A stretch of 64,000 nucleotides of DNA from a virus. Its lineage: Duplodnaviria > Caudoviricetes. Shown here one piece after another: positions 39,345 through 55,635 of this stretch (positions within the stretch are counted from its first letter, which is position 1; each line of letters opens with the position of its first letter). The notes beneath the pieces were generated by a model. That model saw nothing but the letters and a program-made list of their open reading frames with translations. It did not search any database and was not told where the DNA came from. The position numbers and the translations under genes are program-made. The stretch is taken from positions 32,001 through 96,000 of the IMG/VR virus record IMGVR_UViG_3300014000_000001; one strand, given 5' to 3'.

Positions 39345-40583
39345 TTAATTTTTATCTTTTAAGAATGTACGTGCTAAGATATAAAGAACTAATCCAGTAC
39401 GAGCGGATGCAATGATGGTGGAGTTATTTGATTTCACAAACTTCTTCACAAACTTACCTCCAATGTCACGGATCTTTTCAATATCTCCTTTAGCACGAGG
39501 TGCTCCATAAAGAGAATGCATATACACCAAGAACTCAGCGATATTATCTGCTTTCTTTTGAATATCCTTGTCTTGTTGGATTTGTTGGAATGCGTGAAGT
39601 AAGATTAAATCTAAAAGCTCAGTACAAAGTTTATTCCCTTTGTTATATTGCTCATAAAACTTCACCACAGCATCAGAGAGCACAGGTGGCGGTAATCCTG
39701 GTCCTACTAACCCTAAAACTACATTGGCTACCTCAGATCGAATAAACGAGCTTCTATCACGTAAGGTAGTTTCAATGTAGTTCTTGTAGTTATCATACTG
39801 TCCAGCAACATCACGTACGGTTGTACCCTCTTCCATTTCCACCATCATGGATGAACGAAGATGTTTAGTCTCTTGTTGCTTTACATCAATCATTTCATCA
39901 TAGAGGTTCTTTACAATAGACTTCACACGCGTAATAGTATCTGAGATCATGTAAAGCACTTTAGGATCAGGTTCAAAGTTCTTCACCACATTATAATGAA
40001 TTGATTTTGGAGAGATCATATCTTCTGAACGCTCAAGAAGTAGATTATACCAATTACCTGTTTTCTTTAATGAGTATTTGTAAGAAAGATTGTTATATAC
40101 TTTCTCCGATGTTTCTTCGGTAGTTAAGAATTGGAAAGATTGGTTCATAAACGATGTGAGTGCTTTAATATTAAGCACCATGGCACAGGAAACCATAGCA
40201 TCGTGTTTAAGTTCAGGCATGAGCGAGGATTTATAAAAACGATAAATCATGTACACGCATGACATATTTACTACATCGGTATATTTCTTCCAGTCTTTTT
40301 TGATACTTGGTAATTCAACTAAGTCATTACGAACTTCAAGTTCATCAATGTCAAGGACATCGGTGAGCCAATCTAATCGATCTAAAGTTGAATAAACGAC
40401 TTTATAAACCCCAAAGCTATTGGAACCAAAGAAATGAATGTGATCTTCATTCTTGGTTCGAAACGCATCAATATACTGTTCAATACGTTTTAAAAGTTTG
40501 GCATCGAATTTTACATGGCTTAAATGTTTGTCCATGACAGCTTTAATATTCTTCATTTTTAAAACCCTAAATATATAATACAC
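39345..40583 (-). CDS. Helical hypothetical protein, probably a conserved phiKZ-like core protein (likely start MKNIK)
   Basis: Long isolated minus-strand ORF near the terminase block; no function recognised. Confidence 0.6.
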   Translation of the reverse strand: MYYIFRVLKMKNIKAVMDKHLSHVKFDAKLLKRIEQYIDAFRTKNEDHIHFFGSNSFGVYKVVYSTLDRLDWLTDVLDIDELEVRNDLVELPSIKKDWKKYTDVVNMSCVYMIYRFYKSSLMPELKHDAMVSCAMVLNIKALTSFMNQSFQFLTTEETSEKVYNNLSYKYSLKKTGNWYNLLLERSEDMISPKSIHYNVVKNFEPDPKVLYMISDTITRVKSIVKNLYDEMIDVKQQETKHLRSSMMVEMEEGTTVRDVAGQYDNYKNYIETTLRDRSSFIRSEVANVVLGLVGPGLPPPVLSDAVVKFYEQYNKGNKLCTELLDLILLHAFQQIQQDKDIQKKADNIAEFLVYMHSLYGAPRAKGDIEKIRDIGGKFVKKFVKSNNSTIIASARTGLVLYILARTFLKDKN

Positions 40584-44159: not shown

Positions 44160-44185
44160 TTTCAGTTATACATCATCTAGCTGAA
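44160..44185 (+). promoter_or_regulatory. Putative early promoter (variant)
   Basis: TTTCAGTTATACATCATCTAGCTGAA. Confidence 0.65.
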
Positions 44186-44629: not shown

Positions 44630-45145
44630 ATGTCTATTCAAGATATCAACACATACGTAGACGGCATCTTCAATCAGAAACTAAATGGGTCAGGTGACCT
44701 ATCTGAAATTGCATTACACTTCGATCTCATGAAAGATCGTATGGATCAATTGATGGCGTATATACACCATTATACGAACCTAGAAGAGCTTCAAGAACAA
44801 CCATGGATGCTTGGTAACGAACGTTTGTTTAAATTCGTCCAAGCAGTTGTGATTGAGCTTTTGTTTAACTCGGACAACATCAATCGTGATGTTATGTTCT
44901 TATTAGCTCATCCGTTCGATAAACAAACAGATGCAGCGAAGTTCAACGTCTATGCTATGAATCTAATGGCGTTCGCAGATGAACGCTTAACCGAGCGTTT
45001 AAATGGCGCGGGTTGGATCAAGCGCTTATTTAAAGGTTCTAAGCATTATTACGTGAATCAGTACTATAACTTGATTACTGAGAAAATCAAAATGCCTGAA
45101 GAAATCGAAGGTGATGTTGCTCCGTTTAGCCCTAAGTTGGGATAG
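44630..45145 (+). CDS. Hypothetical protein (171 aa)
   Basis: ACAGAGGT SD. Confidence 0.8.
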   Translation: MSIQDINTYVDGIFNQKLNGSGDLSEIALHFDLMKDRMDQLMAYIHHYTNLEELQEQPWMLGNERLFKFVQAVVIELLFNSDNINRDVMFLLAHPFDKQTDAAKFNVYAMNLMAFADERLTERLNGAGWIKRLFKGSKHYYVNQYYNLITEKIKMPEEIEGDVAPFSPKLG

Positions 45146-45157
45146 ATAAAAATACTG

Positions 45158-45187
45158 CTGCTGGTTATCCTATAGGATAACCAGCAG
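45158..45187. terminator. 30-bp palindromic terminator
   Basis: CTGCTGGTTATCCTATAGGATAACCAGCAG then a T run. Confidence 0.8.
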
Positions 45188-45228
45188 TTATTTCTTTTTT
45201 TTTGTCTAAGAACGCAAGGATAAACGTC

Positions 45229-45903
45229 ATGCAAACAACGGTGAAAACTAAATCGTCAATCAAACCAAAATGGGGTAATAATCAAAAGCAATCAGTGTTT
45301 ACAGAAGCTGAAGTTGCTGAGATTTCACAGTACATGAATGAGCTTCGTTTAAGTGCTTTGAAGCTTAACTTCTTACAATGTGCGCTTATAAACACTGATC
45401 CATCTCTTGCTCGTTGGCTTCATGCTAAAGGTTTTAATACTTGGGTAAAAACAGGAAATCAACGTAATGGGAAAACACTATTAACTACTGCTCAGTTGAA
45501 AAATTTAGAAGTGGGTGAACAAGTCGTTCTAAACTTATTCAATAGCGATGAGAAGTTAAATGGCAAACTGTTCATTGAAGCGTTGGGGGATCGTCGCTAC
45601 TTGATTAGTGATGTTATTGCTGAACATCGTTATAACAACTTATATCAACGTGGTTTCTACCCTGACAAGATGTGTAATACAATTTACAATGTATGCATAA
45701 AAGGTAAAAAGGATATTACTTCTTCTCGTAATCCTGATTTCGTACATGCCTTTGAATACGTCCGAAACGTAGCTCGACAAAAACAAAAAGAATTCAATAC
45801 TCAATTTGAAGAATGGAAACAAACTATATCTGAACCAACCATTGAATTACTTCGTGAAATCAACCAAGCAGATTTCGAGTTGAAAAAATTAAATGCAGCA
45901 TAA
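45229..45903 (+). CDS. Hypothetical protein (start MQTTVK)
   Basis: AAGGA SD before ATG 45229. Confidence 0.75.
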   Translation: MQTTVKTKSSIKPKWGNNQKQSVFTEAEVAEISQYMNELRLSALKLNFLQCALINTDPSLARWLHAKGFNTWVKTGNQRNGKTLLTTAQLKNLEVGEQVVLNLFNSDEKLNGKLFIEALGDRRYLISDVIAEHRYNNLYQRGFYPDKMCNTIYNVCIKGKKDITSSRNPDFVHAFEYVRNVARQKQKEFNTQFEEWKQTISEPTIELLREINQADFELKKLNAA

Positions 45904-45908
45904 ATGAT

Positions 45909-45934
45909 AATAAGGTACCCTAGGGTACCTTATT
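45909..45934. terminator. 26-bp palindromic terminator
   Basis: AATAAGGTACCCTAGGGTACCTTATT flanked by GCATAAA and TATGC. Confidence 0.8.
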
Positions 45935-46264
45935 CTATGCTCATGCTTCAGCTAACTTATGTGTAATTAAAAGAACTTCCCCACAAAAATTAAAGCCCAT
46001 CTTAAGGACTTGCTTGTGTTCTTTCTTGGGTATTACTCGCTTGGTGGATCGTTGATCTTGTTCAACATGATTAAACTTCTTAGGTGTTGCAGTTTCAATC
46101 AATACAGAGTTCACGACATATCCTTTTTTGTGTGCTTCTTGCCTAAAGAAGCTAGAGCAGGCCCCCACTCTAGCTTTGGTCTTAACTGGATTATCTCAAC
46201 CTTCCAGGCGGCTGGGTACATTAAAACTACTAATATACTCCGATCATATAAATATAGCAACAGC

Positions 46265-46582
46265 ATAAAAAAAAACACTGACTACCCACGGCAAGAGGGC
46301 AGTCAGGGCTGATTGATCGAACAATTGATCAAAGGAGAAAGAGGCCTCCCGCATCAATGCAAAACTCTATATCGCTCATTCGGCTGTGAGTTCTGGTGAA
46401 TTGGGAGGTTGGGGCTTGATTAGAGGTTTCCCTCTTTTCAATATCGAAAGGTTCCAACCGATCGACAAAGGGCTCACATTTAAGAGCACACTAAGTACCC
46501 ACCCCAGAGAAGGTCTTATAGTAAGCATTGTTATGTACTTATTGCCTTGGACGCCTACTGGGATGGGAAACTGTTTTATTCC
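46265..46582 (-). ncRNA. Candidate structured non-coding RNA (~320 nt)
   Basis: GC-richer intergenic tract with several helices whose G-U pairs work only on the minus strand; ends in a hairpin plus U10; TATG at the 5' end. Confidence 0.6.
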
Positions 46583-46597
46583 ATATAATACATGTTT

Positions 46598-46623
46598 TTA
46601 CAGATATACATAATCTATGTGAA
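46598..46623 (+). promoter_or_regulatory. Putative early promoter
   Basis: TTACAGATATACATAATCTATGTGAA. Confidence 0.75.
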
Positions 46624-46651
46624 TTATTGTTTTGTTATTACAGAGGTCGAT

Positions 46652-47413
46652 ATGAAAATTGCAACAGCGCAGAACTCTAAACCTATTCGTAAAGAATTGC
46701 AAGCTCACTTTAAAAAGTTGCTTGAAGATGGTGAACAACCCATCTCTACGAAGAATATCTTTGGTAATACATTAGCTGAAAAACCTGAATTAAGAGAACT
46801 ATTCTTCAATGAGCATGATCTTAAGAATCAAATGTATATTCATCTACATTCTCCTCACATCACCACCCGGGAAGAATTCGATGATTTATTGAAAGATCTT
46901 AAAGAGCATACGGAATATGAGGCATTAGATGTCTTGATTGGAAATATTGATTGCTTAGTTTATTCTAAGTGTAATGTGTTAAATGAAAACACCATTATAC
47001 AAATGAAAGCGTTACATTTAGGTAACAATGTAGATAACCATTGCGTGGAACATAATATCTTCATGGGTGCTGAAATTCGCACTTACCATATGTTTGATAC
47101 CGATACTGGGCGCAAACGCTTCTTGGGCTTTAGCACAGCTTATGGTGGGGTAGACGACACTACACTATGTTTATACTTAGATGAAAAGATCTTTCGTTTA
47201 ATTCAGCTGGTAATTCCAGGCGTGCGAGTATATAAAACCTTTCGAGAGGAGATTAGCAATATACACCCTATCAAATTACTAAGTCCAATGCGGGTGGTAC
47301 ATTATCCTATCGCTAGTAAAGGATATCGTGAACTATTTAAGTTTGTGAAACACCATTATGGTAACGAGCTACCAGCTCGCTGTATCAAATACATGAATTT
47401 AAAATCTATTTAA
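46652..47413 (+). CDS. Hypothetical protein (start moved to MKIAT)
   Basis: ACAGAGGT SD before ATG 46652. Confidence 0.8.
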   Translation: MKIATAQNSKPIRKELQAHFKKLLEDGEQPISTKNIFGNTLAEKPELRELFFNEHDLKNQMYIHLHSPHITTREEFDDLLKDLKEHTEYEALDVLIGNIDCLVYSKCNVLNENTIIQMKALHLGNNVDNHCVEHNIFMGAEIRTYHMFDTDTGRKRFLGFSTAYGGVDDTTLCLYLDEKIFRLIQLVIPGVRVYKTFREEISNIHPIKLLSPMRVVHYPIASKGYRELFKFVKHHYGNELPARCIKYMNLKSI

Positions 47414-47430
47414 TACAGAGGTAATAAACA

Positions 47431-47703
47431 ATGACAGATCGTAAAACTGTGAGTTCAGATGAACTTGCTGAATTTGCTAAACAAAACAATTTCAAAGTAC
47501 ACAATGATGTACATGGGATACTTACTCGTTTTGAAAATTATCCTGAGTGTTTAGACACTTGGGTGAAAGATGGATCACTCGATAGCTTAAAATTGATTGA
47601 TCAAAATAATGTAGGGGTAAAGCTTTATTCCTTAAACAACTGTGGTGTTGTCATGTGGTATAACCCAGAAGACAAACCGCTTGCTTTATTCAGAGGTAAA
47701 TAA
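47431..47703 (+). CDS. Hypothetical protein (90 aa)
   Basis: ACAGAGGT SD. Confidence 0.8.
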   Translation: MTDRKTVSSDELAEFAKQNNFKVHNDVHGILTRFENYPECLDTWVKDGSLDSLKLIDQNNVGVKLYSLNNCGVVMWYNPEDKPLALFRGK

Positions 47704-47756
47704 GATGAATATAATTGTAATTGGTGTTACGGTCGATACGCGGTGAGGCCAAACTA

Positions 47757-48176
47757 ATGAATCCATTATTTTTAAATCGTGATATTTGTCCAATGCGTGA
47801 AACGCCGAACATCGAGGAAATTAATCCCAATCGAGGGACTCACAATCATGGTGACCGTTTCGATGAATGGGATGATGAAAAGGTAATTACTTACCTTACT
47901 CTAAATGGTTTCACTAACCTTAAGAAACTCGAAGATGGAAGTTGGTGTGGTTTATACCGTCTAGCTTTCACTTGGAGTGTCTGTACCGATATCACATATC
48001 TCACACCTTACGCTTATCGATGGTGTTTTAAAGATAAAGCTGAAGCAGATTACTTCTTAGAGAATTTGAAGGAATTTGATGAAGTTCCCGTTAAACGTAC
48101 GTCATTAGTTGGGCATCGCTTTAGTGGTGAAGCTCGATTAATGGCTTTTGATAATTTAGGATTAAAGAAATGGTAG
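47757..48176 (+). CDS. Hypothetical phage protein (start MNPLF)
   Basis: GAGG SD before ATG 47757. Confidence 0.7.
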   Translation: MNPLFLNRDICPMRETPNIEEINPNRGTHNHGDRFDEWDDEKVITYLTLNGFTNLKKLEDGSWCGLYRLAFTWSVCTDITYLTPYAYRWCFKDKAEADYFLENLKEFDEVPVKRTSLVGHRFSGEARLMAFDNLGLKKW

Positions 48177-55186: not shown

Positions 55187-55605
55187 ATATATAACGAATG
55201 AAATGAGTTATATATGCCTACAGTGGTTAGAGAAGAGCATAGCTATGAACGATAGTGAATAGGTAAATGCGATGAACTAACATGTAGAATGAGCTTACGT
55301 TACTACGTAATGAAATGGAGTAGGAATTAGTAAGCGATAGAGCATGAGCGGAGCGAATACCTTAGTCTGTAATAGATACTAACATAAGAGAATTATAACA
55401 TAAGAGCGCAGCTCTTATATATATTATATTTCATACAATAGGCAAATAATTAAAATAATAATTAAAGAGAATAAAGATTAAGAGAATGAGTACGTAAGTA
55501 AACTCATTCTTAAGTTAAGATATAGGGATAATGAATGATCCCTTTAGGAAGATCATTCTAGATAGATTAAATAACTTAGGAGAAGGGGAAACCTTTCTCC
55601 TAAGA
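55187..55605 (+). other. Non-coding array of imperfect hairpins with purine-rich loops (structured ssDNA/RNA; origin candidate)
   Basis: About nine consecutive stem-loops; caps of the type GA-AT-GAA-AT-GA, GA-AC-GATA-GT-GA, GA-GC-GGA-GC-GA; no ORF. Confidence 0.6.
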
Positions 55606-55635
55606 ATATATGCTGTTTTATGAAATTAATTTTAT

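Follow-up and report, generated by a model that had tools for sequence, protein, structure and literature searches.

The DNA analysed here, a stretch of 64,000 nucleotides that we call the window, spans bases 32001-96000 of a 232,790-bp IMG/VR virus record. It encodes proteins of the phiKZ family, among them split subunits of multisubunit RNA polymerase and a tail sheath, and the virion RNA polymerase subunit is less than 40% identical to any GenBank phage counterpart, which points to a divergent, uncultured phiKZ-like jumbo phage of 233 kb, of the nucleus-forming type. Metagenomes from wastewater, surfaces and air contain the phage in near-identical form. A 750-nt gap separates two plus-strand genes, 45202-45903 and 46652-47413, and holds on the minus strand an RNA gene of about 315 nt (46267-46582), recognised by its fold, its homologues, covariation and the lack of a conserved open reading frame (ORF), and, downstream of it, a small protein-coding gene (45941-46111). 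The gene at 46652-47413, divergent from the RNA, encodes 253 aa and has no relative but itself among 5.8 billion proteins. On the other side, the product of 45202-45903 is a fast-evolving protein with just 32-37% identity to its group A counterparts (see below), compared with 82% for the core protein encoded 6 kb away. Judging from these comparisons, the RNA is a conserved element embedded in a very fast-evolving block of early genes. A palindromic, bidirectional terminator (45909-45934, both strands), kept in the relatives L002, L004 and L008, closes both the minus-strand module and the plus-strand gene 45202-45903.

Transcription signals and the linked small gene

The RNA gene begins at a box of the phiKZ TATG type, TATTATATG (46582-46590, minus strand), which is found at the same place in 12 relatives; the form TATTATAT(G/A) occupies this position in every RNA-bearing lineage. 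The non-virion polymerase of phiKZ recognises a late promoter that consists of TATG, the last G being +1 (PMC4666361). The source phage has such a TATG within 46590-46582, with the final G of TATTATATG at 46582 as the predicted start of the RNA. The preliminary description of the locus had reported a late-type TATG at the 5' end; it is present, but as part of the longer conserved box. The 9-mer occurs just twice in the 233-kb genome and, in the relatives' loci (~150 kb), is confined to the RNA module bar one extra copy in L008. We infer that TATTATATG drives the RNA as its promoter, and by analogy with the phiKZ TATG its transcription would fall to the phage's non-virion RNA polymerase, at the middle or late stage of infection.

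The second copy of TATTATATG in the source phage (55127-55135, plus strand) stands at the head of a second candidate ncRNA region, 55187-55560, by which a hairpin followed by AUAUGCUG lies at ~55572-55615 (+). The extended box may thus mark RNA genes in this phage. The extra copy in L008 (L008:3155, minus strand) is on the other strand, lies within a 234-nt gap and is followed by a C-rich tract, AACACCCCCCCUUUCACCC; this may be another small transcription unit.

A BLAST search of the region against its own genome revealed that a repeated element occupies the 50 nt upstream of the RNA. Its 25 copies in the genome read tTTCAGATATAyATTATCTAaGTGAA, all lie on the plus strand, and each precedes a plus-strand gene that has AGAGG as its ribosome-binding site. 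They include copies at 44163, 41086, 38932 and 22765 of the window (+) and the one at 46601-46623 (+), which lies back to back with TATTATATG, as had been described, and serves the gene 46652-47413, not the RNA. In genes behind the element, the 5'UTR usually ends in UAUUACAGAGGUAA. We take the element to be a sharply defined early-promoter class of this clade.

At its other end, the RNA runs into an intrinsic terminator (46267-46306, minus strand) in which a 10-bp stem with one G-U pair, CUGACUGCCC (46306-46297) with GGGUAGUCAG (46287-46278), carries a 9-nt loop and is followed by U9 (46275-46267), one residue shorter than the U10 first reported, and then by AUGCUG. Its form, UUUUUUUUUAUGCUG, is that of a hairpin, a T run and ATGC, as at many gene ends of the phage. 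The pattern hairpin + T run + ATGC(T/A)G recurs at gene ends, for example at window positions 82, 3794(-), 48658, 54361 and 45909-45945, and where convergent genes share a palindromic terminator, the T run + ATGC motif stands on either side of it, so that the motif is part of the terminator. In this clade it is probably the counterpart of the phiKZ terminator motif, and the TATG within it may also restart transcription. In the source phage and its nearer relatives, the RNA's own intrinsic terminator would end transcription, so that a discrete RNA would be released. Contigs assembled from three metatranscriptome runs and one DNA run over 44800-47800 are few, 150-300 nt long and of depth 2-7, too sparse to speak for or against a discrete transcript; one of them, from an RNA run, covers 46386-46557, within the RNA, and the others lie in the flanking genes.

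The small gene downstream (45941-46111, minus strand) encodes a basic protein of 56 aa, has a GTG start and an AAGGA Shine-Dalgarno (SD) sequence, and ends at the palindromic terminator. Its ORF is conserved in all 12 relatives examined, with 53-60 aa and a GTG start in each of them. The protein combines a variable basic N-terminus with a C-terminal motif, LKLGF..D.V.LL; in the AlphaFold2 model the N-terminus is disordered and the C-terminus forms a beta-hairpin (pLDDT 80-89), which is too small for a fold search, and no match was found in PHROG, Pfam, Atlas or GenBank phages. Between the RNA terminator and this gene stands a second promoter-like box, TATATTTATATG (46245-46256, minus strand), which is a near match to TATTATATG in the source phage and in L013 and an exact TATTATATG in L002-L005; no second box is apparent between terminator and ORF in L008. 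The terminators at the RNA end in group A and L013 occupy the same place and are non-homologous. The six distinct group B sequences have no terminator between the RNA and the small ORF, so that the RNA of these phages would be the 5' part of the small gene's mRNA, unless processed.

Some 95 nt downstream of TATATTTATATG in the window (46245-46150, minus strand) end in a hairpin, AAGCUAGAG..CUCUAGCUU, plus CUUUAGGC, and at the equivalent position L002, L004 and L008 have a terminator-like hairpin with a U-rich tract and (U)AUG. The sequence of this segment is not conserved between lineages. It may encode another short RNA or serve as a structured 5'UTR.

Fold and anatomy of the RNA

The minimum free energy of the RNA is -105.4 kcal/mol, compared with -83.6 +/- 5.5 kcal/mol for dinucleotide shuffles (z = -3.97), and none of 100 shuffles reached its stability, a comparison that had been named beforehand as a possible refutation. 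The opposite strand of the tract also folds (z = -3.1). The tract is richer in GC than its surroundings (0.42-0.46 versus 0.33-0.36), as had been noticed, and all the helices of the preliminary description proved to be in place and to be kept in relatives by compensatory changes.

From its 5' end, the RNA consists of a large domain, three hairpins, a second domain and a tail, all on the minus strand. The P1 domain (46498-46567) is closed by a 10-bp helix, CCCAUCCCAG (46567-46558) with CUGGGGUGGG (46507-46498), and encloses an insert that varies by lineage. In group A the insert is made of P2 (46548-46545 with 46513-46510) and P3 (46542-46536 with 46527-46520), both nearly invariant; group B has a different helix inside P1, in which all 6 pairs covary. 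The 3' end of P1 and the UAC that follows it form the motif GGGUAC (46495-46500), nearly invariant throughout the family in our alignments and read as AGGUAC in L013. Group B has an additional hairpin between P1 and H-A. Hairpin H-A (46472-46487) has a covarying stem, and its loop, UUAAAUGU (46483-46476), is conserved in groups A and B. Hairpin H-B (46443-46466) has 9 pairs and a loop region UUGGAA, and hairpin H-C (46422-46435) reads AGAGG-GAAA-CCUCU. We consider that this conserved 5' half, comprising the P1 domain, GGGUAC, H-A, H-B and H-C, would be the functional core.

The 3' domain (46345-46408) is closed by CCUCCC (46408-46403) with GGGAGG (46350-46345); a C-rich/G-rich closing helix is found in both groups, around a variable interior. 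It is followed by an unpaired pyrimidine tail, CCUCUUUCUCCUUU (46331-46344), an 'anti-SD-like' tract with a CCUCU complementary to AGAGG, and then, upstream of the terminator, by a predicted UUGAUC/GAUCAA hairpin (46313-46332). L002-L005 and L013 also have a hairpin at this last position, with sequences unrelated to one another and to that of the source phage, and none is evident at the equivalent position of L008. In the 3' half the architecture is kept and the sequence is not, with a domain that has a C-rich/G-rich closing helix and then a pyrimidine tail. Two tertiary contacts were considered and rejected as inconsistent across lineages: in L002 and L004 a GCCUU/AAGGC pseudoknot, and pairing between the 3' domain and the UUAAAUGU loop.

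Homologues, covariation and coding potential

The route to relatives was a conserved gene, 6 kb away (39345-40583, phrog_2921), for which the Logan, ENA and NCBI metagenome assemblies contain relatives with 83-44% identity. The contigs that bear it are syntenic: the same two genes enclose the same gap, and a small ORF lies there on the opposite strand. Many further relatives were reached with a profile of the fast-evolving flanking protein, and five more contigs added lineages. In total, 12 distinct homologues of the RNA from ~10 lineages were recovered from metagenomes, at the same spot, on the same strand and behind the same promoter box; they are 306-330 nt long. Group A comprises the source phage, L002/L003, L004/L005 and L008, and group B comprises L007, L014, L016, L017, L023 and L027, with L013 as an outlier to both. 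Other searches gave no further locus: neither the region nor its flanks found a homologue among GenBank phages by blastn or tblastn, an IMG/VR search with three single proteins and one protein alignment found no related locus, the same alignment against JGI metagenomes found one 1.4-kb fragment without the locus, and the genome of the source phage has no paralogue of the RNA. A loose DNA pattern, TTTCCC..GGGTAYYTW..TTAAAWG, matched 69 stretches in IMG/VR and, in prokaryotic genomes, at least 120; the 69 are chance matches, because none of them fits the covariance model, which was applied to the IMG/VR set.

One relative is informative by what it lacks. L009, with 71% identity in the core protein, has a gap of 400 nt in which the small ORF is kept and the RNA is absent. 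Since the ORF stands behind a single TATTATATG box, the only copy there, this arrangement (L009:3375-3800) points to a secondary loss of the RNA.

Between the source phage and L002, L004 and L008, the 5' half of the RNA has 66-74% nucleotide identity, close to the 73-76% of the core gene; the flanking genes have 54-58% and the 3' half of the RNA 46-54%, with a shuffled baseline of ~50%. The longest ORFs in the homologues differ in position and in length (15-62 aa), none is conserved across the family, and indels are not multiples of three, so that nothing in the tract is coding.

Pairing, on the other hand, is kept by compensatory changes in both groups. RNAalifold returned 80 pairs for group A, 22 of them with compensatory changes, and 59 for group B, 24 of them compensatory. 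For the 5' domain of group A, a structure of 44 pairs was checked by hand; it has 96.5% of its cells paired, and double changes occur at 13 pairs (23 cells), which none of 500 shuffles matched; when the structure was slid by 1-3 columns, pairing fell to 34-46%. The corresponding values for group B are 89.5% paired, 24 pairs and 40 cells compensatory, 0 of 500 shuffles and 38-46% when slid. Collecting homologues and examining their covariation had been suggested as a check on the RNA, and for the 5' domain of 11 sequences from the whole family we found 91.1% of cells paired and compensatory changes at 31 of 41 pairs, in an alignment that was fitted with a model and so leans towards structure; 0 of 500 shuffles were as good, and the slid controls gave 37-45%. 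The MAFFT-based counts for groups A and B are free of that bias. All these alignments span only ~10 independent lineages. By helix, compensatory pairs number 10 of 12 in P1 across the 11 sequences (6 of 10 within group A) and 6 of 6 in H-C family-wide (3 of 6 in group A), while H-B is 98% paired in group A, with 2 compensatory pairs, and 100% paired in its family-wide form, in which 5 of 6 pairs covary.

A covariance model built on group A finds group B at the syntenic place, weakly (E 0.0014-0.7). The group B model finds L008 (E 9e-6), the window at 46410-46584 (E 0.002) and L013 (E 0.003), and weakly L003 and L002 (E 0.085 and 0.39); every one of its matches begins at the predicted RNA start. 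The two models thus find each other's group at the same place and with the same start, and groups A and B are therefore one family. As to the strand, the pairs include 20 G-U cells in group A and 31 in group B, and pairing drops to 88.8% and 82.7%, respectively, when the opposite strand is read. Together with the promoter and the U-run terminator, these G-U cells fix the strand as minus, in agreement with the preliminary description, which had argued from the G-U pairs. We are highly confident that the locus encodes a real, conserved, structured, non-coding RNA. The earlier view of an independent multi-domain ncRNA holds as regards a multi-domain ncRNA, and its independence is shown for L013 and group A; the RNA of group B has no terminator to set it apart.

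Two further observations concern the group B phages. Their RNAs end in a conserved GUAAAAAAAUAC (e.g. L017:3815-3840(-)), and at the same place L014 has its exact reverse complement, GUAUUUUUUUAC (L014:5510-5525(+)), which resembles a small inverted element. Four of these phages have, in the intergenic gap that comes next, repeated sub-threshold Rfam 'sraA' matches on the minus strand (28-34 bits, for a gathering score of 56; L016:3856-3948, L017:5006-5096, L023:5010-5105 and L027:4995-5097), which are probably a conserved hairpin or terminator.

Known RNA families and possible function

The RNA matches no known family, as had been noted for tRNA, tmRNA and known ribozymes. ARAGORN found no tRNA or tmRNA gene in the window, and Rfam 15 (4227 models) had no match in the window at gathering score, none in 46265-46585 at E <=10, and nothing in the RNA of six relatives at E up to 5. 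A group I intron, which would have a conserved catalytic core (P3-P9) and interrupt a host gene, was rejected: there is no Intron_gpI match at E up to 10, and the element is intergenic, lies on the strand opposite to its neighbours and has a promoter and a terminator of its own. The lack of any Rfam signal ruled out T-box, SRP, 6S and RNase P RNAs, and a CsrB-like sponge by the presence of just one or two GGA loops.

ROOL (RF03087) and GOLLD (RF01998) are likewise phage-borne, highly structured, non-coding and backed by covariation, but they measure 500-800 nt, and the RNA described here is half that size, belongs to one jumbo-phage clade and has no Rfam match at E <=10. In autoregulatory ribosomal-protein leaders such as the L20 leader, a structured RNA is bound by the product of the downstream gene. 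Our RNA resembles it in being a structured RNA directly upstream of a gene for a small basic protein, by which it could be bound, and differs in that this protein belongs to no known family and that a terminator and a second promoter box intervene in the source phage. The pRNA of phi29 is a phage-encoded folded RNA that acts as part of a protein machine and not by base pairing; unlike it, the present RNA has no link to a packaging gene and comes from an unrelated phage family, and the two share no similarity of sequence or structure. With regulators of the Staphylococcus aureus RNAIII type it shares a multi-hairpin fold and an unpaired CCUCU complementary to the SD, but here the C/U tract is not conserved family-wide, and there is no Rfam match.

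The closest setting is that of the sRNAs of giant phages, sRNA001-011 of 201phi2-1 and the phiKZ sRNA upstream of gp182, which are intergenic or derived from 5'UTRs (PMC11512511). These were recognised by a start closely followed by a termination site and by enrichment in reads, and were filtered to <250 nt; 8 of the 11 in 201phi2-1 are 5'UTR-derived through premature termination, some are located in the 5'UTR of the gene that follows, and one is kept across genera (PMC11512511). The RNA described here comes from the same kind of phage and likewise has a promoter box of phage type and then a terminator. Whereas those sRNAs were mapped as transcripts, it is defined by covariation, has ~315 nt and several domains, shows no sequence relation to them (blastn, GenBank phages) and does not lie upstream of a gp182 homologue. 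We class it as a new RNA family among the structured ncRNAs of nucleus-forming jumbo phages.

Our preferred reading, in which we have moderate confidence, is that the ncRNA gene of about 315 nt (46582 to ~46267) founds a new family and specifies a folded late RNA that likely binds protein. The RNA would work as a fold that binds a protein, as scaffold, decoy or component of a ribonucleoprotein (RNP). Selection acts on its shape and on a few loop and junction nucleotides, with no long antisense stretch, and a protein-binding role is therefore favoured over regulation by base pairing; the conserved loops have no complementary sites in the translation-start regions of the phage. The best candidate partner would be the small basic protein that is always encoded just downstream.

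It is possible, if rather unlikely, that the RNA is instead a cis-acting 5' leader of that small gene, controlling read-through or translation, perhaps with the protein binding its own leader as in ribosomal-protein leaders, and with premature termination in group A yielding a '5'UTR-derived sRNA'. The RNA does lie directly upstream of the small ORF and on the same strand in 12 of 12 RNA-bearing lineages, the absence of a terminator between them in the six group B sequences fits a leader and makes it a serious rival, and agreement with a leader also comes from the origin of 8 of the 11 sRNAs of 201phi2-1 (PMC11512511). In group A and L013, however, strong terminators of unrelated sequence stand at the end of the RNA, so that the stop is itself under selection, and a second promoter box precedes the ORF (exact in L002-L005, a near match in the source phage and L013). 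Inspection of the source phage, L002, L004, L008 and L013 found no conserved antiterminator pairing or competing helix of the kind expected in a riboswitch or attenuator, and a leader of 300 nt that has at least five helices is large for a gene of 55 aa. L009, moreover, has the ORF behind the same promoter box without the RNA, and so the protein does not depend on the RNA, a point that tells against our preferred reading as well.

The pyrimidine tail suggests another role, that of a trans-acting translational regulator in which CCUCUUUCUCCUUU pairs with AGAGG SDs, for example in a late shut-off of early genes. AGAGG is the dominant SD of the phage, present in 50 of 202 start regions where 6.6 would be expected; in the source phage and L002-L005 the single-stranded tail contains CCUCU, and the tail is pyrimidine-rich in all lineages. 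Yet the CCUCU/CUCCU motif, kept in 3 of 4 group A lineages, is missing from the tails of L008 and most of group B and is a mere 5-6 nt long, and conservation is strongest in the 5' domain, whose loops find no matches in start regions; we hold this role to be very unlikely. That the tract has no function as RNA, and owes its conservation to a role as DNA (origin or protein-binding site) or to a gene for a small protein, its fold being incidental, has a negligible probability in our estimate. The folding of the opposite strand would agree with it, as would a plus-strand TATGC box at ~45938 that could transcribe through the region. Against it, compensatory changes keep pairs that include the 20 and 31 G-U cells, which are mismatched on the other strand, indels break every frame, and the promoter and terminator are conserved on the minus strand.

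The protein-binding reading may be extended to a more specific proposal, which we advance as improbable in its full form: the RNA and the small basic beta-hairpin protein would make up a late-acting, phage-specific RNP, the RNA would in addition be an autoregulatory operator where the two are co-transcribed, and TATTATATG would mark both RNA genes of the phage. Such an RNP might, for example, serve in the handling of RNA or ribosomes across the boundary of the phage nucleus late in infection.

Nucleus-forming jumbo phages keep transcription apart from translation and use their own polymerases. Almost nothing is known of their ncRNAs beyond the transcript maps of two model phages. The family described here comes with a defined anatomy, in which five conserved helices and invariant motifs in loops and junctions stand behind a promoter box and are linked to a small protein; this provides handles for experiments and a seed alignment for an Rfam-type model. 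Amid fast-evolving early genes, the RNA equals a core structural gene in conservation, an argument for its importance to the phage.
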